Notes: generated by a model not told the origin, from the sequence alone. DNA of 64,000 nt from Minisyncoccota bacterium (GCA_017881075.1 JADGRH010000006.1:48154-112153); one strand, 5' to 3'; positions 11,478 through 33,057 are shown, counted from the stretch's first letter. Numbers and translations are program-made.

Positions 11478-11550
11478 GGGTGGCTAGAGAGAATCGGACT
11501 CTCGACTCAAGTTCCACAAACTTGGGTTTTACCACTAAACTATAGCCACC
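11478..11550 (-). tRNA. tRNA-His (anticodon GTG)
   Basis: Reverse complement folds as a cloverleaf: acceptor GGTGGCT/AGCCACC, anticodon stem CAAGT/ACTTG with loop TTGTGGA (GTG), T-arm GAGAG-TCCGATT-CTCTC. Confidence 0.85.
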
Positions 11551-12423: not shown

Positions 12424-12441
12424 ATGTTGATTATAGCACTG

Positions 12442-12523
12442 TGCCCGGGACAGGAGTTGAACCTGCATGCCTTTCGGCGCTACCACCTCAAGGTAGTACG
12501 TCTACCAGTTTCGCCACCCGGGC
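12442..12523 (-). tRNA. tRNA-Leu (anticodon GAG), long variable arm
   Basis: Reverse complement: acceptor GCCCGGG/CCCGGGC, anticodon stem CTACC/GGTAG with loop TTGAGGT (GAG), long variable arm CGCCGAAAGGCATG, T-arm CAGGTTCAACTCCTG. Confidence 0.85.
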
Positions 12524-14571: not shown

Positions 14572-14772
14572 ATGACATCACCAGAAGAAAATAAAAGTGA
14601 AAGGGTTAACATTACTGCAGAAGAAATTCTCGGGCGTAAATTCGGAGATGTTTTTGGAGAAGGTGGAGAGAATCTTAAATCCATAGTGGTGGAAATGAAT
14701 AATGGAGAAAGAATGACTTTCACTAATATGCAAGAGATAAAAGATTGGAGAGATAGCGAAAAAGAGAGATAA
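14572..14772 (+). CDS. small hypothetical protein (66-72 aa)
   Basis: ORF with ATG at 14572 (track uses TTG at 14554), followed by a strong terminator. Acidic; no recognisable domain. Confidence 0.4.
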   Translation: MTSPEENKSERVNITAEEILGRKFGDVFGEGGENLKSIVVEMNNGERMTFTNMQEIKDWRDSEKER

Positions 14773-14796
14773 CTCCAATTTATAAAAAAGTAAATC

Positions 14797-14826
14797 AAAA
14801 AGCCGCCCAGAGGGCGGCTTTTTGAT
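14797..14826. terminator. bidirectional rho-independent terminator
   Basis: GCCGCCC-AGA-GGGCGGC hairpin flanked by an A-run on one side and a T-run on the other. Confidence 0.7.
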
Positions 14827-14935
14827 TTTATTTGTGGGCGATGAGGGATTCGGTCACGAATAATTTTCTGCTGAAAATTTTCGCGACCCCGCCTCGGCGC
14901 CGACGCACCTGCGGCTTTCTCATCCCTCATCGCCT
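14823..14935 (-). repeat. tRNA-associated conserved module, copy A, fused to a 20-nt duplicate of the tRNA-Val 3' end
   Basis: 14823-14842 is an exact copy of 14991-15010, the 3' 20 nt of tRNA-Val. 14842-14885 carries the conserved hairpin ggtcacgaataattttc-tgct-gaaaattttcgcgacc plus gcgaccccgcctc, shared with 17091-17135, 29683-29731 and 33001-33050. An inner inverted repeat ggcgatgagggat/atccctcatcgcc forms a 13-bp minihelix. Confidence 0.55.
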
Positions 14936-14992
14936 CACAATGATGAATGATTGATTGCTCGAAGAGTCCCCGACTCTTCTCGCAAATCATTG

Positions 14993-15065
14993 TGGGCGAT
15001 GAGGGATTCGAACCCCCGACCTTTTCGGTGTAAACGAATTGCTCTACCAACTGAGCTAATCGCCC
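14993..15065 (-). tRNA. tRNA-Val (anticodon TAC)
   Basis: Reverse complement: acceptor GGGCGAT/ATCGCCC, D-arm GCTC-AGTTGGTA-GAGC, anticodon loop TTTACAC (TAC), T-arm GGGGG-TTCGAAT-CCCTC, discriminator A. Confidence 0.85.
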
Positions 15066-15106
15066 CTGCTTTTGCTAGCTTAAACTATATCTTTCTAGTT
15101 TTCAAC

Positions 15107-16225
15107 CTATCTGATGGATCGGTAGCCACCGACTACACCTTTTTTTGATAGGACAATCTGCCACAATTGAATATTCCGAGCTCTAAAACTACCAGCGAAA
15201 GAGAGAAGATAAAATTGCCACATTCTGTAAAACTTTTTGCCATATTTTGAAGCAATTTCTGGCCAATGTTTTTTAAAATTATTCTCCCAAGCTAAGAGGG
15301 TTTTTTCATAATCTAGTCCGAAATTGTGCCAGTCCTCCATGACGAATTTACTACCAAAGCTTTTACCTATACTAGAAATAGTTGGGAGAGCTCCATTGGG
15401 AAAAATGTAGCGTTCCACCCAAGGATTGTTGGTATCATAGGCTCTCTGATTACTGCCTATTGTATGAAGAAGAAATAAGGCGTGTGGGGGGAGACACTTA
15501 TATACTACGTCCATAAATTTATTGAAATTCTTATACCCAACAGCCTCAAACATTCCTATCGAGACCACCGCATCAAATTTCTCGTTGAGATCCCTATAGT
15601 CTTGCAATCTAATTTCAATAGGCAATTTTTCACATAACTTTTTAGCAAAAGTTAATTGTTCTTTTGATAAAGTGATACCCACGCCGACTATTCCATATTT
15701 TTCGGCAGCAAATTTAAGAAAACTTCCAAAACCACAACCAATATCCAATATTTTCATTCCCGGCTTCAAATTAAGTTTGCGGCAAATAAGATCAAGCTTG
15801 TCTTCTTGAGCCTTATCTAAGTCATCGGTATTTGCCCAATAGGCACAGGTGTACACCATGCGCTTATCGAGCATTCTTTCATACAAATCATTGCCTAAAT
15901 CATAATGGATATCAATTACTTCTTTTGCTTTATTTTTGGTTTGTTTATTTATTATACGAGCAAGCAAATAATCTATGATTAGACCTGGACTTATGGGCAA
16001 ACTCTTTCTAATATTGGCTAGAAGGATTCTATTTATAAATTCATCAACACTTTCAGAATCCCACCAACCTTCCATGTATGATTCTCCTAAGCCTAATGAT
16101 CCTTGGCCTAAAACTCGGTTATAAAAGCGTTCATTGTGAACCTGAATATCCCAGGCACGTGAGCCATTAATTTTTATATCCGCCTTTAGAAGTAGGCTCT
16201 CTATAATCTTTTTTGCTTTATTCAT
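15107..16225 (-). CDS. cfa: cyclopropane-fatty-acyl-phospholipid synthase family SAM-dependent methyltransferase
   Basis: ILDIGCGFGSFLKFAAEKYG SAM-binding motif and overall CFA-synthase architecture; 372 aa. Confidence 0.88.
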   Translation of the reverse strand: MNKAKKIIESLLLKADIKINGSRAWDIQVHNERFYNRVLGQGSLGLGESYMEGWWDSESVDEFINRILLANIRKSLPISPGLIIDYLLARIINKQTKNKAKEVIDIHYDLGNDLYERMLDKRMVYTCAYWANTDDLDKAQEDKLDLICRKLNLKPGMKILDIGCGFGSFLKFAAEKYGIVGVGITLSKEQLTFAKKLCEKLPIEIRLQDYRDLNEKFDAVVSIGMFEAVGYKNFNKFMDVVYKCLPPHALFLLHTIGSNQRAYDTNNPWVERYIFPNGALPTISSIGKSFGSKFVMEDWHNFGLDYEKTLLAWENNFKKHWPEIASKYGKKFYRMWQFYLLSFAGSFRARNIQLWQIVLSKKGVVGGYRSIR

Positions 16226-16379
16226 GTATATTGTTTTTCCCCCTCTCGGTCTATCTCACTAAATGGTGCTCCACTCGCGTCTCGGACGTGGGTATACCAA
16301 GCAGTGTAAGGCTTCCTGAACGATTTTCCAAGTCTTCAATTGAATCCCTTCATATCTGTGTTGACATTATGTACACGAC

Positions 16380-16646
16380 GTGTATACTAGAAATATGGAT
16401 ACATTACATATAAGAATCGATAAGGGCGTTAAAACTAAAGCGGGGAAAACTCTGGCTGATTTAGGCATGGATATGAGTACAGCGGTAAAGATTTTTCTCC
16501 ATCAGGTAATAGTAGATAAGGGTTTGCCTTTTACTCCATCACGAAATACGACAGCTCTTCGAGCCAGATGGGACAAAGAGGTTGCCGATGCTTTAGAAAA
16601 AGGTAAGAGATATAAAAGTGCTGAAGAAGCTCATGCGGATATTTAA
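16380..16646 (+). CDS. dinJ: DinJ/RelB-family antitoxin
   Basis: 88 aa. IRIDKGVKTKAGKTLADLGMDMSTAVKIFLHQVIVDKGLPF matches DinJ. Immediately followed by the toxin gene. Confidence 0.8.
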   Translation: MYTRNMDTLHIRIDKGVKTKAGKTLADLGMDMSTAVKIFLHQVIVDKGLPFTPSRNTTALRARWDKEVADALEKGKRYKSAEEAHADI

Positions 16647-16652
16647 TAAAAT

Positions 16653-16937
16653 ATGTATACTCTCGTTCTGGCTAAGGGCTATGTAAGGTCTTACAGAAAA
16701 TTAAGATATTCGGGCAATTTTACAATCAAAGCCAAAGAAGATTTAGAGTTTGCTATCAACACTCTACTTTTGGGTAATAAATTGCCCCTTGAATACAGAG
16801 ATCATCAATTAAGCGGTGAGCTCAAAGGCTATAGGGATTGTCATATTAAAGGGAACCTCTTACTAATTTATCAGATAAGAAGTAAGGAGCTTATTTTGAT
16901 TTTAGCTAATATTGGAACGCATTCGGAATTATTCTGA
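16653..16937 (+). CDS. yafQ: YafQ/RelE-family mRNA interferase toxin
   Basis: 94 aa. HQLSGELKGYRDCHIKGNLLLIYQI...LILANIGTHSELF matches YafQ. A terminator-like hairpin lies at 16946-16993. Confidence 0.8.
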   Translation: MYTLVLAKGYVRSYRKLRYSGNFTIKAKEDLEFAINTLLLGNKLPLEYRDHQLSGELKGYRDCHIKGNLLLIYQIRSKELILILANIGTHSELF

Positions 16938-16998
16938 AAAAATCCAAAGAAGTCGATGCTTCATCGCACTGTCGAGTGTAAGGATTTTTTGGCTTGTG

Positions 16999-17071
16999 CT
17001 CCTGGTAGGAATCGAACCTACATTGACGGCTTAGAAGTCCGCAGTTCTATCCATTGAACTACAGGAGCATG
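16999..17071 (-). tRNA. tRNA-Arg (anticodon TCT)
   Basis: Reverse complement: acceptor GCTCCTG/CAGGAGC, anticodon loop CTTCTAA (TCT), T-arm GTAGG-TTCGATT-CCTAC. One A-G mismatch at the base of the anticodon stem. Confidence 0.8.
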
Positions 17072-17079
17072 AAAATATT

Positions 17080-17236
17080 ATACAGGAATCGGTCACACAT
17101 AATTTTCTGCTGAAAATTTGCGCGACCCCGCCTCCTCGCCTTCGCTCGTCCGGCCTTGCGCTTTGGGTCCCATCCCAAAGCTCACCTCTCATTACGGCTT
17201 AGAAGTCCGCTGTTCTATCCATTGAACTACGAGGGC
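17080..17236 (-). repeat. tRNA-associated conserved module, copy B, fused to a duplicated 5' portion (positions 1-47) of a tRNA-Arg-like sequence
   Basis: 17193-17236 (minus strand) reproduces the tRNA-Arg acceptor 5' strand variant GCCCTCG, D-arm and full TCT anticodon arm. Then a roughly 110-nt insert contains the shared hairpin (17091-17135) and ends in ..GACCGATTCCT, imitating the T-loop 3' side, 17 nt before the intact tRNA-Arg. Confidence 0.55.
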
Positions 17237-17277
17237 ATTGAATCTATAAAATAGCGCGTAACAGACATGGGCGCAAG

Positions 17278-17607
17278 TTAAAAGGTGGGATCTATCGTGG
17301 TGGGTTTCGCCAAGCGAAGTGCTTCGAACTGCTTCTCCTTTGCATCATAGATGGTCAAAATATTTTTCAGATTATCCCGAGTGGCGGCATCGGCGCCGAC
17401 CGTAGGCGCCGATGCCACTTCAAAAATATCCCCTTGGTTGATCTGCCAGAAAAGATAGGCACTCCAACCAATGGTTAAAAGATTGATGGTAAGAAAAAGG
17501 ATGACCAACTTCTCCCAATCTTTTCTCGGGTCCTGGCCGAAAAAAACTTGGGTTCTGACCTTTTTCTTGAAGAGTTTGCTAAATATGGATCCAATGTTCT
17601 GTTTCAT
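17278..17607 (-). CDS. small membrane protein, last gene of the pilM/N/O-like operon
   Basis: 109 aa, single TM helix. Start overlaps the upstream gene's stop. Confidence 0.4.
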   Translation of the reverse strand: MKQNIGSIFSKLFKKKVRTQVFFGQDPRKDWEKLVILFLTINLLTIGWSAYLFWQINQGDIFEVASAPTVGADAATRDNLKNILTIYDAKEKQFEALRLAKPTTIDPTF

Positions 17608-25671: not shown

Positions 25672-25838
25672 ATAAAAATTATATCACTGGAGTGTGGAAT
25701 TTGGTCATAAGATTATCAGTTAAGGCGAGTCTCGTGCGCGATGACTCATCACGACTTGGCGGAGCCCTACGTCGAGGACTCCTCAGGACTCTCGTAAAAC
25801 ATAGTCGCCCAATGCTTCACATTGTGCTCCTTGTTTTG

Positions 25839-25925
25839 CGGAGGAGGTGAGATTCGAACTCACGACCCCGTTTCCAGGGTTCCAGTTTTCAAGACTGGTG
25901 CGATCGACCACTCTGCCACTCCTCC
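25839..25925 (-). tRNA. tRNA-Ser (anticodon TGA), long variable arm
   Basis: Reverse complement: acceptor GGAGGAG/CTCCTCC, anticodon stem CCAGT/ACTGG with loop CTTGAAA (TGA), variable arm AACCCTGGAAACGGGGTC, T-arm GTGAG-TTCGAAT-CTCAC. Confidence 0.85.
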
Positions 25926-26742: not shown

Positions 26743-26814
26743 CCCCTCGTCGTTCAATGGATAGGATGCAGACTTGCGGAGTCTGTGATATAGGTTCGAT
26801 TCCTATCGAGGGGA
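26743..26814 (+). tRNA. tRNA-Arg (anticodon GCG)
   Basis: Acceptor CCCCTCG/CGAGGGG, anticodon stem CAGAC/GTCTG with loop TTGCGGA (GCG), T-arm ATAGG-TTCGATT-CCTAT. C1-G72 pair and G37 are atypical for tRNA-Arg. Confidence 0.7.
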
Positions 26815-26820
26815 CAAATT

Positions 26821-29529: not shown

Positions 29530-29602
29530 CCGCCCGTAGCTCAGTCGGTAGAGCAGCTCCCTTTTAAGGAGATGGTCGCAGGTTCGATTCCTGCCGGGCG
29601 GA
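29530..29602 (+). tRNA. tRNA-Lys (anticodon TTT)
   Basis: Acceptor CCGCCCG/CGGGCGG, D-arm GCTC-AGTCGGTA-GAGC, anticodon loop CTTTTAA (TTT), T-arm GCAGG-TTCGATT-CCTGC, discriminator A. Confidence 0.85.
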
Positions 29603-29743
29603 CAAGAGAGAAAAATGCAAACCGCTTTGCATTTTTCGATACTTGTCCGAGCCGCAGTCATGTTGAGGCTTTGCGAGACAGACGAGGCGGGGTCGCAGAA
29701 ATTTTGCTGCAGCAAAATTATCTGTGGCGACAGTTAAAAGGAG
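29599..29743 (+). repeat. direct repeat copy 1 (attL-like): tRNA-Lys 3' end plus trailer terminator hairpin plus conserved module C
   Basis: 98 bp (29599-29696) identical to 32913-33010, with continued similarity to about 29743. Contains a terminator-like hairpin AAAAATGCAAA-ccgc-TTTGCATTTTT and the gaggcggggtcgc-hairpin module. Confidence 0.7.
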
Positions 29744-29766: not shown

Positions 29767-30525
29767 CTAAATCGCTTGTTTACTAACGATAGATTTCCAT
29801 ATAATTTCAAATTGTTCGCGTTGCATTTGAACCATACTCTTGTTTTCAATCAATATAGAAATAATCGGCTCTACTATCTGCGTAATAATTAATTTATGTG
29901 GGAGGATAACCAAATTGGCTGTTAAATCAACCTCTTTCGGTAAGAAACGGACCTCCTGGTTAGTATTTTTCTCTATCTGCTTATAGTAATGAGCATCTTC
30001 ATTATCTTGCAAAATTGTTCTTATTTTTAAATCAAGTTTTGCTCTTTTCTCGATGAAATTAGTGAAATACCTTCTATCCATACTTAAAAATCTTTTCATA
30101 TCGGAGAGGATTAAATATTCATCTCCTGGTTTAAGTCCATCGAGAATTTCATCATAGACAGTTTTTACTCCCTTAATGCCTTCATAATATTTAATAAAAC
30201 TTTCTCCACTTTTTAAGCTGTGTATGGCATTGAGTTCGGGTATCATGCTTTTTAAGCGATCCTTTTTCTGTTCAATTATCCCCTCTAATCTTTCGGGCCT
30301 CTCAGCCATAAAGAGTTTTTTAAGACCTTGAACCTCAGTAGTCATTATTCCTTTATTTTTAAGTGCGTCGATGACTGTGTAAATAGTGGTACGTTTTACA
30401 CCTGATTTTTTAGCTATTTCTTGAACGGTGGACGGACCTAATGATAGGGACGCCAAATAGACCAAAGCCTCATGCTCACTTAACCCAAAATCAATCAAAA
30501 TATCGGTTAATTCGTCTTTTTTCAT
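29767..30525 (-). CDS. TrmB-family transcriptional regulator
   Basis: N-terminal HTH (LSEHEALVYLASLSLGPSTVQEIAKKSGVKRTTIYTVIDALKNKG) and a TrmB-type C-terminal domain; 252 aa. Confidence 0.75.
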   Translation of the reverse strand: MKKDELTDILIDFGLSEHEALVYLASLSLGPSTVQEIAKKSGVKRTTIYTVIDALKNKGIMTTEVQGLKKLFMAERPERLEGIIEQKKDRLKSMIPELNAIHSLKSGESFIKYYEGIKGVKTVYDEILDGLKPGDEYLILSDMKRFLSMDRRYFTNFIEKRAKLDLKIRTILQDNEDAHYYKQIEKNTNQEVRFLPKEVDLTANLVILPHKLIITQIVEPIISILIENKSMVQMQREQFEIIWKSIVSKQAI

Positions 30526-30641
30526 AAAATGTCGATTAAATCGACAACAAATATATCATATAAAATATAGATATTATTGTCAATATAGATATATTGTCGA
30601 CACATTTGACACTACTGTTAAAAATTACTATAATACTTAAT
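30526..30641. promoter_or_regulatory. divergent promoter region with palindromic operator candidates
   Basis: Perfect palindrome GTCGATTAAATCGAC (30531-30545), a TGTCGACA palindrome about 30592, and a TATAAT -10-like hexamer just upstream of the aminotransferase start. Confidence 0.4.
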
Positions 30642-31955
30642 ATGAAAAATGTCAATTCAGTAAAAGTACTTGGAGCAAACAGAGGGGTCGTAATGCTCAA
30701 TAACGCTGCAACAACAGCGCCTTTTGCGAGTACCATGCTAGAAGTAAATAATTACCTTAAAGAATACGGCGCTCTACATCGTGGGTCTGGCCCTTATGCT
30801 AATAAGACTTATGATAAGGCTATTAAGGCGCAGTCGATTATTAGGAAGTTTATTGGCGCCAAAGATGAGACATGTCTTCTCTTTACTCAAAATACAAGCA
30901 GTGCGATCAATCTCTTTGTTCGTCTGCTTAATTTAAAGAAGGTTGATGTCATTCTGACTTCTTCAATAGAACACACCTCTAATAATCTACCGTATATCTA
31001 TAACAGCAAAGCTAGAGTAATTTACATCGATACATTTAATGATGGTTCAATCGACTACGCTGATTTAGAAAAGAAAGCTTCAAAATACGCGCTTCATTTA
31101 AAGCTCATTAGCATTACAGGAGCATCAAATCTAAGCGGATATATTCCAGATATTAAAAGAGTTGCCAATATAGCTCACAGGAACAATGCTCTGTTGTTTG
31201 TCGATGCGGCTCAGCTTGCGCCTCACAGACAAATTGATATGCAGAAATCTCATATTGATGCTTTAGCGTTCTCTGCCCATAAGATTTACGCACCTTTTGG
31301 CTTAGGAGTTCTTGCTATATCAAAATCGATATTAGATAAAACTCCAGTTGAACCAGGGGGAGGCTCAATAGACATGCTAAGCAATCACGGAGTTGTTTGG
31401 GCATCAGTGCCTAATCGACACCAAACAGGCACATGGAATGTCACCGGCATCGTAGCGCTTGGGGCCAGTTGTAAACAAATCATAGACACTGGTTGGAAAA
31501 AAATTGTTCAACATGAGCGAGAGCTAGTTGAATATACAACAAAAAATCTGAAAAAGGTTCCTGGTCTAGTTATGTACATAACGCCGGAAAAGTATTTAGA
31601 GGAAGACAGAATAGGAACTTTTGTTTTTAATCTACCGAGCTATCATCATGCATTACTATCTTCAATCTTAGATCGTGAATATGGTATAGAAACTCGCGCT
31701 GGGACAATTTGTAATCATAAGCTTGTCCGACGATGGTTTAAAGTCGACGACAAAGATCAACTAAGGATTGAAAAAGAAATCAGGGAGGGTAACAAATTGG
31801 CCTCATATGGAATTGTTCGAGTCAGTCTTGGCATGCAAAATACCAAGAAGGATATAGACAAATTGGTTACGGCTCTTATCTCAATTCAGAAAAACGGCCC
31901 AAAACTAAAATACAAAGCGGCACCCAAAGAGGAGGCTTATTCGGTAATAAAATAA
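30642..31955 (+). CDS. class V aminotransferase / cysteine desulfurase-like PLP enzyme
   Basis: PLP fold-type I with LAFSAHKIYAPFGLGVL (Lys-PLP site) and VDAAQLAPH. Start moved to ATG at 30642, because the first 16 track codons overlap the operator region. Confidence 0.75.
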   Translation: MKNVNSVKVLGANRGVVMLNNAATTAPFASTMLEVNNYLKEYGALHRGSGPYANKTYDKAIKAQSIIRKFIGAKDETCLLFTQNTSSAINLFVRLLNLKKVDVILTSSIEHTSNNLPYIYNSKARVIYIDTFNDGSIDYADLEKKASKYALHLKLISITGASNLSGYIPDIKRVANIAHRNNALLFVDAAQLAPHRQIDMQKSHIDALAFSAHKIYAPFGLGVLAISKSILDKTPVEPGGGSIDMLSNHGVVWASVPNRHQTGTWNVTGIVALGASCKQIIDTGWKKIVQHERELVEYTTKNLKKVPGLVMYITPEKYLEEDRIGTFVFNLPSYHHALLSSILDREYGIETRAGTICNHKLVRRWFKVDDKDQLRIEKEIREGNKLASYGIVRVSLGMQNTKKDIDKLVTALISIQKNGPKLKYKAAPKEEAYSVIK

Positions 31956-31959
31956 ACAT

Positions 31960-32658
31960 ATGAAAACTACAAACGTTAAAGCAGATAATTTAAATTACGA
32001 TCATTATGCAACGGGGAAGTATGATGCTGATATCCGCAGGGTTATTCCCGGCCATGAGGATTTACATAAAGAAATTGAAAATTTTGTTACTGACTATACT
32101 AAATCTAACAAGATATCTAGAGTTGCTGATCTTGGTATCGGCACGGGTCTTACCTCGGAGAGAATATTAAAACTTACACCTGATGCAGAACTTATTGCCA
32201 TTGATTTCTCTGATCAAATGATAGAAGGAGCAAAGAAGAGACTTGCTTCCTATAATGTTAAGTACCGGTTTGGTGATTATTCCGAAATTAATTTTGGAGA
32301 AAATTTCGATATTGTAACTTCAGTTATTGGAATCCATCATCAAAATACTGGGGGTAAAAAGAAGGTGTTTAAGAAAGTCTATGACTCTCTAAAGAAAGGA
32401 GGAGTCTTCATGTTTGGTGATTTAGTTACCTACCGAGACAAAGAAGAAGCGGCTTACAATGATGCAAAACATTATGCCTTGATGGTAAAAAATGCTGAGG
32501 ATGAGAAATCTCTTAGGGAGTGGGCTTATCACCATAAGTTTCTCAATGATCTGGCTCCAATCGAAGACCAAATTAAATGGTTAAAAGCTGTAGGCTTCAA
32601 ACATGTCACTGTTACATTTCAGTATCTAAACACAGCTTTGATTATTGCGGAGAAATAA
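31960..32658 (+). CDS. class I SAM-dependent methyltransferase
   Basis: VADLGIGTGLTSERIL motif I and downstream acidic motif II; 232 aa. Tightly linked to the aminotransferase gene. Confidence 0.8.
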   Translation: MKTTNVKADNLNYDHYATGKYDADIRRVIPGHEDLHKEIENFVTDYTKSNKISRVADLGIGTGLTSERILKLTPDAELIAIDFSDQMIEGAKKRLASYNVKYRFGDYSEINFGENFDIVTSVIGIHHQNTGGKKKVFKKVYDSLKKGGVFMFGDLVTYRDKEEAAYNDAKHYALMVKNAEDEKSLREWAYHHKFLNDLAPIEDQIKWLKAVGFKHVTVTFQYLNTALIIAEK

Positions 32659-32912: not shown

Positions 32913-33057
32913 CGGACAAGAGAGAAAAATGCAAACCGCTTTGCATTTTTCGATACTTGTCCGAGCCGCAGTCATGTTGAGGCTTTGCGAGACAGACGAG
33001 GCGGGGTCGCGGAAATTTCCGAGTTGGCGAGGAAATTATCTGTGACGACATTAAAAG
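32913..33057 (+). repeat. direct repeat copy 2 (attR-like), including conserved module D
   Basis: 98-bp perfect match to 29599-29696, starting with the last 6 nt of tRNA-Lys (cggaca). Followed by a variant of the hairpin module. Confidence 0.7.

Follow-up and report, generated by a model that had tools for sequence, protein, structure and literature searches.

Functional RNAs other than tRNA are known to come from the spacers and trailers of tRNA operons, as in the case of the E. coli sponge derived from a 3' external transcribed spacer (3'ETS-leuZ) and of the 178-bp repeats distal to tyrT (rtT RNA). Elements processed in the manner of tRNA include mascRNA, at the 3' end of MALAT1, and minihelices of the acceptor/T-arm type, which RNase P, RNase Z and the CCA-adding enzyme accept as substrates, and integrative elements targeting the genes for tRNA or transfer-messenger RNA (tmRNA) carry att repeats at the T-loop sublocation. 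Theta ribozymes, which are minimal ribozymes resembling that of hepatitis delta virus (HDV), adjoin phage tRNAs and cleave at most 5 nt away from the tRNA 3' end (PMC10879173), and group I introns have been described in tRNA genes and in the tmRNA T-loop of Patescibacteria (PMC13011429). This work concerns a structured module present in four copies in a 64,000-nt stretch of a Minisyncoccota bacterium genome (GCA_017881075.1, JADGRH010000006.1:48154-112153), referred to below as the window. By the tests made, the module is a new RNA family, linked to tRNA across Patescibacteria and without an entry in Rfam.

The 13-mer GAGGCGGGGTCGC was found in the window in four exact matches, at 14883-14895 and 17122-17134 on the minus strand and at 29684-29696 and 32998-33010 on the plus strand, and in one additional match with two mismatches (0.48 expected by chance; none of 100 shuffles gave five matches). 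The covariance model R1, made from an alignment of 40 homologous module copies, was applied to the window with a cut-off of E < 0.1 and recovered the same four places and no others, with the scores given in Table 1; the opposite strand of the two best copies, those at tRNA-Val and tRNA-Arg, reached only 23.5 and 19.6 bits. The repetition of a motif with an A/T-stem hairpin at four places, on which the preliminary description of this DNA was built, was thereby reproduced by both searches. The sites had been located correctly, but the span assigned to each of them corresponds only to the hairpin half of the unit. Seven tRNA genes were found in the window by ARAGORN and Rfam, the three listed in Table 1 and those at 11478-11549, 12441-12523, 25838-25925 and 26743-26815.

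The alignment of 40 copies over the 65-nt core gave the consensus aaa-GCC-gGA-(P2)-GA-GGC-GG-(P3: GGUCGCnn-AAAUUUnn-loop-nnAAAUU-A-U-nnGUGACC). A 3-bp helix, GCC/GGC, bears the hairpin P2, attached via a GGA/GA internal loop and consisting of 4-5 bp capped by a GNCG loop or of a longer stem, and is followed by the GG linker and by P3, a long A/U-rich hairpin with an invariant GGUCGC/GUGACC base that includes a G.U pair, an invariant bulged A and an apex varying from 4 to 30 nt or more. Invariant purines join the helices, about eight of them unpaired within the junction, and overall approximately 25 nucleotides are invariant. The three-way junction is closed by local sequence and becomes a four-way junction in a long variant with an added 5' hairpin. 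Standard pairing was found in 99.1% of the alignment cells, with nine pairs changed on both sides; none of 500 shuffles equalled the observed covariation score and controls with slid partners paired at 36-47%. Compensatory changes occur in all three helices, including the 3-bp helix, which reads GAC/GUC, GGC/GCC, GUC/GAC, ACC/GGU or AGC/GCU in copies lying outside the search pattern used below, and the bulged A persists where the sequence of the neighbouring helix differs. The G.U pairs, one invariant and 15 more, identify the tRNA strand as the functional one. In some copies a sub-motif composed of a stem, tandem G.A/A.G, a G-C stem of 2-4 bp and a GNCG loop is present twice, once in P2 and once at the P3 tip (e.g. 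at 33019-33034 in the window and in L004, L010, L071 and L076, where L numbers denote loci in other genomes), and it may represent a protein-binding unit that is repeated.

When one genome per species was scanned with the exact 19-nt pattern GAGGCGGGGTCGCNNAAATTT, at least 120 loci were found, and the genomes bearing it (at least 120) belong nearly all to Patescibacteria (candidate phyla radiation, CPR), in several classes; among the matches listed there are Saccharibacteria, Paceibacterota, Adler-, Kaiser-, Nomura-, Harrison-, Niyogi-, Zambryskii- and Taylorbacteria. Genomic context was counted for 135 model matches in 100 loci among the matches listed, which contain 234 tRNA genes. A tRNA on the same strand ends less than 300 nt upstream of 88 of the 135 copies (65%), and a tRNA on the opposite strand was found on that side for 12. 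The level expected by chance is about 4% by our own estimate (234 tRNAs x 300 nt over approximately 0.9 Mb x 2 strands); enrichment in tRNA 3' flanks had been proposed earlier as a check. tRNAs of all kinds serve as neighbours. Of the 90 copies that have a tRNA upstream, 20 are also followed by one on the same strand within 200 nt. Certain spacers recur as module sites in different genomes: five loci have the order Arg(TCG)-module-Gly(GCC), four have Arg(GCG)-module-Arg(CCG) and two have Val(CAC)-module-Pro(CGG). A tmRNA encoded on the same strand precedes two copies by about 100 nt, and five are placed just past the 5S rRNA 3' end, in the opposite orientation (L001, L023, L025, L031, L090).

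Copies from the same locus are 68% identical, as compared with 69% between unrelated genomes, and the fold is kept in each of them. Since divergence within genomes equals that between genomes, neither a recent burst nor homogenisation within genomes has taken place, and these data point to purifying selection acting on each copy. The module occurs in many copies, has about 25 invariant nucleotides and has been kept beside tRNAs in several classes, and hence it is likely to be part of something basic; the handling of tRNA transcripts, a ribonucleoprotein or a long-lived tRNA-targeting element are examples of what this might be. Patescibacteria comprise a large share of bacterial diversity and have genomes of about 1 Mb under strong reduction, and their RNA level is poorly understood. 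The covariance model is ready for use in annotation, and the module provides a testable object in the cultivable Saccharibacteria.

Nothing of the core is lost where it follows a truncated tRNA copy, such as that of tRNA-Arg in the window, or where it stands alone beside 5S. Its role is therefore independent of an intact upstream tRNA, which favours a product of its own over a purely cis-acting trailer signal. The interpretation preferred here, and held tentatively as somewhat short of an even chance, is that the module is a functional domain of a small RNA under the control of tRNA promoters and flanked by tRNA-like ends. The RNA would be encoded in the same strand as the tRNA, within the 3' trailer or a spacer of a tRNA (or tmRNA) transcription unit, or alternatively behind a truncated tRNA 5' part that retains the tRNA promoter, and its expression would be driven by tRNA promoters. 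Release could proceed through end recognition of the tRNA type, by RNase P together with 3'-end maturation, and the invariant core (junction, G.U pair and bulged A) would be the working part, most likely a platform for a candidate conserved Patescibacterial protein or RNA partner. Such an RNA would resemble the E. coli spacer and trailer RNAs in being a non-tRNA RNA within a tRNA transcription unit, presumably expressed from the tRNA promoter, and each downstream tyrT repeat likewise copies about 19 nt of the tRNA 3' end. The E. coli RNAs, however, are species-specific, confined to a single locus and devoid of a conserved multi-helix core, whereas the module is phylum-wide, multi-copy and covarying, with its approximately 25 invariant nucleotides and a tRNA copy paired with an antisense segment.

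The location of the module 3' of tRNA or tmRNA in the same strand, often between co-oriented tRNAs, would also be expected of a cis-acting element of the tRNA precursor, either a new class of self-cleaving ribozyme or a structure recognised by an RNase, with cutting or protection of the trailer or spacer as its role. Approximately eight invariant unpaired purines in a junction are typical of small ribozymes or protein sites, and in many copies (among them L059, L073, L021 and that at tRNA-Lys in the window) the 5' strand of an upstream hairpin starts at the last nucleotides of the tRNA. A precedent exists in the tRNA-adjacent ribozymes proposed to process 3' trailers (PMC10879173). Like theta ribozymes, the module is a small conserved RNA that occurs in many genomes at the 3' ends of tRNAs and in their strand, but it has neither an HDV-like fold nor a match in Rfam, it is chromosomal and not phage-borne, and its core begins 18-240 nt from the tRNA end, while theta ribozymes cleave within 5 nt (PMC10879173). 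Even with E relaxed to 5, none of the known ribozyme families matched; the core is preserved just as well behind truncated tRNA copies and antisense to 5S, where there is nothing to process, and fewer than half of the tRNAs in the window have a module. A cis-acting element is therefore considered quite unlikely.

Comparison with described families gave the following results. With Rfam 15 at gathering thresholds, the window and 18 loci showed no match on the module and only tRNA, rRNA, tmRNA and noise of the terminator type; when E was raised to 5 for the region 14700-17400, nothing was found on the module beyond terminator-driven noise. The module cores did not match tRNA (RF00005), and in the Rfam searches none of the covariance models of known self-cleaving ribozymes (hammerhead, twister, twister-sister, pistol, hatchet, HDV-like) matched; HDV-like and hammerhead cores are also absent from the sequence. 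A kink-turn was rejected, as only 1 nt is bulged and GCCGCAG variants do not keep the GA, a guide RNA of the H/ACA or C/D class for lack of the pocket and boxes, and a primer-binding site of the retroviral type because X', the antisense segment described below, mismatches a CCA-ended tRNA. A group I intron was likewise rejected, there being no RF00028 match on the module. Excision in silico of the module with 0-74 nt of upstream sequence (88,596 variants, ARAGORN) rebuilt only the adjacent intact tRNAs; it never gave a unique tRNA, so the module is not an intron of essential tRNAs. The group I introns of Patescibacteria (PMC13011429) are comparable in phylum and as structured RNAs at defined tRNA-like positions, including the T-loop, but the module, of 65-110 nt, has no group I core and the interrupted copies are unspliceable truncated pseudogenes beside an intact gene. 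Among the features tested by which the families compared here are recognised, the att-type direct repeat is the only one that the module clearly displays. A literature search, in which not all journals were covered, returned no description of the module, the nearest reports being PMC13011429 and PMC10879173.

Two main types of 3' flank can be distinguished. In the T-loop type the upstream tRNA is repeated from C56 up to position 76, over at most 21 nt, and the repeat stops at the tRNA end; together with an antisense 5' flank it forms the closing helix P1, of 5-20 bp. In the CACA type A-CA(A) follows P3 directly and P1 is short, and the antisense segment also pairs with the tRNA end and trailer, producing a hairpin that overlaps the tRNA 3' end. 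The closing helix has only 4-7 bp in many copies. None of the seven tRNA genes of the window encodes CCA; all read discriminator-C-A-(A/G), and positions 74-75 of the 234 tRNA genes of the related loci are CA in 130 cases and CC in four. Because the tRNA genes read N73-CA (N73 being the discriminator) and the module flank does likewise, the module ends like a tRNA gene, and N73-CA may be a conserved 3'-processing signal.

At tRNA-Val the core is enclosed between X', the antisense segment, and X, the direct copy of the tRNA 3' end (Table 1). X' pairs with 14832-14851 in the minimum free energy fold of the unit, which is a three-way junction of 109 nt with -61.9 kcal/mol and z = -9.3. X is identical to 14990-15010 and the identity extends no further at either side; the exact copy recognised in the preliminary description is thus 21 nt long and not 20. 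The spacer, the tRNA-Val 3' end and X' together constitute a long imperfect palindrome, and YGGGG-loop hairpins resembling that of the spacer are present in L003, L059 and L073. The X'-module-X arrangement at tRNA-Val(UAC) has been kept in three genomes, those of the window, L213 and L215, with P2 and the spacer diverged. L215 has the same bulged A in X' as the window, though its P2, 3-bp helix and spacer differ. In L213 and L215 the downstream tRNA copy has drifted into G.U pairs and P1 retains 12-13 bp. Because this drift is compatible with G.U pairing, it points to long retention of the arrangement and to selection on P1 at the RNA level. The search for empty sites in relatives, also proposed earlier, was informative at these two loci, both of which are filled; no empty site was seen. 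Synteny anchored on the flanking proteins revealed no close relatives of the window organism, the best matches being 83% identical in a different context and the others 46-48%.

A tRNA-like or minihelix non-coding RNA was one of three explanations considered initially, and it is the best supported of them, given a covarying RNA on the tRNA strand and a closing helix of the Val type that is derived from tRNA. Similarly to mascRNA and the minihelices, this helix comprises the 3' strand of acceptor and T-stem, the discriminator and the tail, and it lies downstream of another RNA, where the enzymes processing tRNA ends could cut. The module differs from them in having no T-loop, D-arm or anticodon arm, with the conserved junction in place of the T-loop, and in the short closing helices of many copies. 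When the Val copy was examined as a minihelix, the helix was found to hold the exact 56-76 strand of tRNA-Val, but with N73-CA paired and the T-loop absent.

Several observations weigh against a small RNA released from tRNA transcripts. The paired N73-CA of the Val copy is atypical for substrates of RNase P or RNase Z; the module is present at only three of the seven tRNA genes in the window; about 10% of the copies lie behind a canonical terminator; and the copies beside 5S run antisense to the rRNA operon. When open reading frames lying within 2.5 kb of the module were clustered all against all in 120 loci among the matches listed, no linked gene family recurred; the largest cluster covered 9 of these 120 loci and all clusters were housekeeping (BipA, MurD, CCA-adding enzyme, YraN). 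Co-transcription, processing of the ends, CCA addition, action in trans and the partner are steps that we infer from sequence. Finally, the direct repeats, truncated gene copies and tandem remnants described next look derived from insertion and are not explained by such an RNA.

In several loci a truncated tRNA 5' part is followed by the module and then by the intact gene for the same tRNA. The long variant is found between the D-arm and the anticodon arm, with truncation at position 20-26, in L016 (Ser), L029 (Asn), L106 on the minus strand (Phe) and L115 (Ala), where the retained pieces of the anticodon arm are extended into a perfect palindrome; L070 was grouped with these loci for a long variant near position ~26. 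In the Arg copy of the window and in L099 (Glu) the tRNA 5' part ends near the T-loop. Copied tRNA pieces next to the junction are often lengthened into perfect palindromes, an example being the Val region of the window at 14921-15011. Partial antisense copies of 5S adjoin the intact 5S gene in the five 5S-linked loci, and in two of them, L031 and L090, the repeat is 20 nt long and the duplicated segment takes in 16 nt outside the gene, which indicates that it arose at the DNA level. Tandem remnants of the module 3' end (...UUAUnnGUGACC) with a tRNA 3' piece occur downstream of the full copy in L006, L028, L060, L116 and L215, which suggests repeated duplication or replacement at one tRNA. The module accounts for the truncated tRNA and 5S "pseudogenes" in Patescibacteria genomes.

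The window Arg copy belongs to the long variant, whose GUGAG-hairpin-CGCAAG layout was found in 26 copies, 25 of them in other genomes. A partial 5' duplicate of tRNA-Arg with a T-loop-like ending was noted correctly in the preliminary description, but the copied part comprises positions ~3-51 and not 1-47, and its acceptor differs (GCCCUCG as compared with GCUCCUG in the intact gene). Rfam scored 17137-17236 as a threshold-level tRNA (29.3 bits, threshold 29) because the copied 5' part lies within it; the T-arm and a matching acceptor 3' strand are absent. The -10-like element TGTATAAT (17077-17084) was not recovered by the -35/-10 scan. The truncated tRNA-Arg copy, which lies upstream, carries its own similar -10-like element (TATAGATTCAAT-G), so that module copy 2 has a tRNA-type upstream region of its own.

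The traces of insertion would be explained best if the module were an old selfish, non-autonomous element, inserting at T-loop positions 55/56 and at position 26 by recombination through a short segment that it carries. An intact gene and a displaced fragment would be left behind, and the fold of the RNA or single strand would serve propagation of the element and not the host. This corresponds to the mobile tRNA-trailer module of the preliminary description, a live rival supported by the direct repeats, the truncated tRNA and 5S copies and the tandem remnants. Repeats beginning at C56 and ending at the tRNA 3' end reach 21 nt, and besides tRNA-Val direct repeats of 15-21 nt from C56, of the att type, are found in at least 15 loci; classical integrative elements targeting the T-loop have a similar identity block. 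The insertion points recur, at position 26 in the four long-variant loci and in a T-loop-type position in the window Arg copy and L099, the DNA-level duplications and remnants are as described above, and two units bracket a 3.3-kb block in the window. On the other hand, no transposase, integrase or reverse transcriptase is linked to the module in 120 loci among the matches listed, and copies within one genome are as divergent as those of different classes. Compensatory changes keep the fold of each copy at syntenic positions, direct repeats ranging from 4 to > 40 nt are unlike a fixed target-site duplication, and excision in silico restored only the neighbouring intact tRNA and no unique interrupted one. 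The element is also absent from the viral contigs, phage records and plasmids searched: the exact-pattern scan of 2.9 million IMG/VR viral contigs gave 0 matches, and blastn of the Val unit against phage and plasmid collections gave nothing. A selfish origin is thus unlikely, though to be taken seriously. A miniature inverted-repeat transposable element or another repeat derived from an insertion sequence was rejected on the low identity of same-locus copies, the local nature of the flanking inverted segments and the variable repeat length.

The att-site scars proposed initially would be leftover attL/attR of islands or prophages carrying an integrase. The 21-nt repeat of the tRNA-Val 3' end is of the appropriate kind, and tRNA and tmRNA genes are the usual targets of integration. 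Moreover, a cyclopropane-fatty-acid-synthase-like gene and a RelB/YafQ toxin-antitoxin pair occupy 15107-16937, between tRNA-Val and tRNA-Arg, and a synthase homologue from another metagenome (83% identical) is surrounded by serine-recombinase genes and has no module beside it; the stretch between the two tRNA genes of the window may be a variable island. The module resembles att sites in the repeat from the T-loop to the tRNA 3' end, in the tRNA and tmRNA targets and in the arrays of remnants, but it has no integrase or cargo. The approximately 137 nt between the Val repeats are the element itself, and units of about 130-200 nt are the conserved, structured part, found in at least 120 genomes with RNA covariation and at syntenic sites. 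An att scar would not include an antisense copy of the repeat such as X'. Neither an integrase nor a transposase was found near the window copies or in 120 loci among the matches listed, and viral and plasmid collections gave no matches; the four window copies also have no recombinase or reverse transcriptase nearby, and Pfam annotation of their neighbours shows nothing mobile. This proposal did not hold, and scars of this type are hardly credible as the origin of the module.

The module might also be the catalytic or guide core of an RNA element that recognises tRNA-like RNA or DNA through X' and cuts or joins there, as a new class of small ribozyme, or directs insertion at T-loop positions 55/56 and at position 26, which is regarded as decidedly unlikely. 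If it were so, the partial tRNA, tmRNA and 5S copies would be its footprints, and a protein-independent mobile or processing RNA targeting tRNA would have been kept across the whole phylum.

A further duplication involves the third and fourth copies. The segments 29599-29696 and 32913-33010 form a perfect direct repeat of 98 nt, comprising the tRNA-Lys end, the trailer hairpin (whose 5' strand overlaps the final nucleotides of tRNA-Lys) and the 5' half of the module. The identity stops at the base of P3 and the P3 apex types differ, which shows that the module copies are mosaic. The two units bracket 3.3 kb with genes for a TrmB-like regulator (29767-30525, minus strand), a class-V aminotransferase (30594-31955, plus strand) and an S-adenosylmethionine (SAM) methyltransferase (31960-32658, plus strand), and this block looks as if acquired through recombination at the module. 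Both copies finish with GTGGC/GTGAC-GACA and echo the tRNA-Lys 3' end and trailer (GGACAAG), not the T-loop, so that the earlier statement that the junction imitates the T-loop of the adjacent tRNA in every case fails here.

Identity ending at the P3 base on both sides of a gene block would suit a site of recombination in folded single-stranded DNA (attC-, dif- or REP-like, the last named after repetitive extragenic palindromes), used by a chromosomal recombinase that would bind the P3 palindrome. Integron attC sites formally resemble P3, whose imperfect palindrome combines a conserved base and a variable apex with an extrahelical base, and G.T wobbles are tolerated in hairpins of single-stranded DNA as well. 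The multi-helix junction, the invariant purines and the separate covariation of the 3-bp helix and P2 nevertheless fit an RNA tertiary structure better, and the orientation agrees with tRNA transcription in 88 of the 100 tRNA-adjacent cases. No recombinase is linked, an R/L-box consensus is missing and a fixed overlap could not accommodate an apex of 4 to 30+ nt; a DNA site is therefore very improbable. In a direct comparison with integron attC and Xer dif-like sites neither GTTRRRY boxes nor an 11-6-11 XerCD core was present, and the search of the surroundings revealed no integron integrase.

With its stable hairpins lying 3' of tRNA genes, the module could in principle be an intrinsic terminator or attenuator of tRNA operons, and the order X ... 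X' ... X permits two alternative pairings in the manner of an attenuator. The upper stem of P3 is A/U-rich without a U-run, however, and canonical terminators are separate from the module, lying between it and the tRNA in 10 of the 90 copies with an upstream tRNA and just past it in 10. The 20 copies located between co-transcribed tRNAs, as well as conservation exceeding what a terminator needs, make this explanation extremely improbable, and the module was rejected as an intrinsic terminator.

Table 1 Module copies and adjoining features in the window (X, direct copy of the tRNA 3' end; X', its antisense; P1-P3, helices of the fold)
Feature	Position	Strand	Basis
Intrinsic terminator, bidirectional, directly 3' of copy 1	14792..14828	.	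terminator scan, strong, 17-bp stem, both strands
X (CGAAUCCCUCAUCGCCCACAA), exact 21-nt direct copy of tRNA-Val C56-position 76; 3' strand of P1	14832..14852	-	
Module copy 1 (Val), 65-nt core	14852..14918	-	R1 86 bits, E 3.6e-18; fold
Layout of copy 1: AAA-GCC-GCA-(P2 GGUGC GUCG GCGCC)-GA-GGC-GG-(P3 GGUCGCGAAAAUUUUC AGCA GAAAAUU(A)UUCGUGACC)	14852..14918	-	
X' (UGUGAGGCGAUGAGGGAUGAG), antisense of tRNA-Val 3' end, one bulged A; 5' strand of closing helix P1	14919..14939	-	sequence; fold
Spacer between tRNA-Val and X', with GGGG-loop hairpin (14958-14982)	14940..14991	-	read from sequence
tRNA-Val(UAC), intact, no encoded CCA, ends N73-CAA	14992..15065	-	ARAGORN; Rfam 71.3 bits
tRNA-Arg(UCU), intact	16996..17068	-	ARAGORN; Rfam 67.2 bits
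TGTATAAT, perfect extended -10-like element 9 nt upstream of intact tRNA-Arg, right after the module	17077..17084	-	consensus match only
CGAUUCCU (CGATTCCT), copy of tRNA-Arg T-loop/T-stem positions 56-63, directly 3' of the module	17084..17091	-	sequence
Module copy 2 (Arg), core with P2 variant CGAGCGAAGGCGAG	17091..17157	-	R1 79.8 bits, E 1e-16
Extra 5' hairpin of the long variant, GGUGAG-(GCUUUGGG AUGGGA CCCAAAGC)-CGCAAG	17158..17186	-	fold
Truncated tRNA-Arg(UCU) copy, 5' part, positions ~3-51	17190..17236	-	local alignment to intact tRNA
tRNA-Lys(UUU), intact	29530..29603	+	ARAGORN; Rfam 71.8 bits
Trailer hairpin GGACAAG...CUUGUCC around a terminator-like stem (29610-29637)	29600..29648	+	fold
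Module copy 3 (Lys), long P2 (GUC-AUG...CA-GAC type)	29648..29728	+	R1 41.6 bits, E 9e-8
Module copy 4 with the same trailer hairpin, no adjoining tRNA	32913..33047	+	exact repeat; R1 32979-33047, 36.6 bits

At positions 3555-3796 of L031 a group I intron was identified in the 23S rRNA gene of Nomurabacteria (Rfam 57.6 bits); this intron has no relation to the module.

Scanning metagenomes with the 3' half of tRNA-Val proved unspecific and returned mostly bacteria outside the CPR. Human-gut contigs (L201, L132, L224-L226, L232, L236 and others), which are not Patescibacteria and are free of the module, contain an identical copy of this half, behind which come a terminator and a long-arm tRNA in convergent orientation, and the tRNA-Val 3' half is thus shared far outside the phylum.

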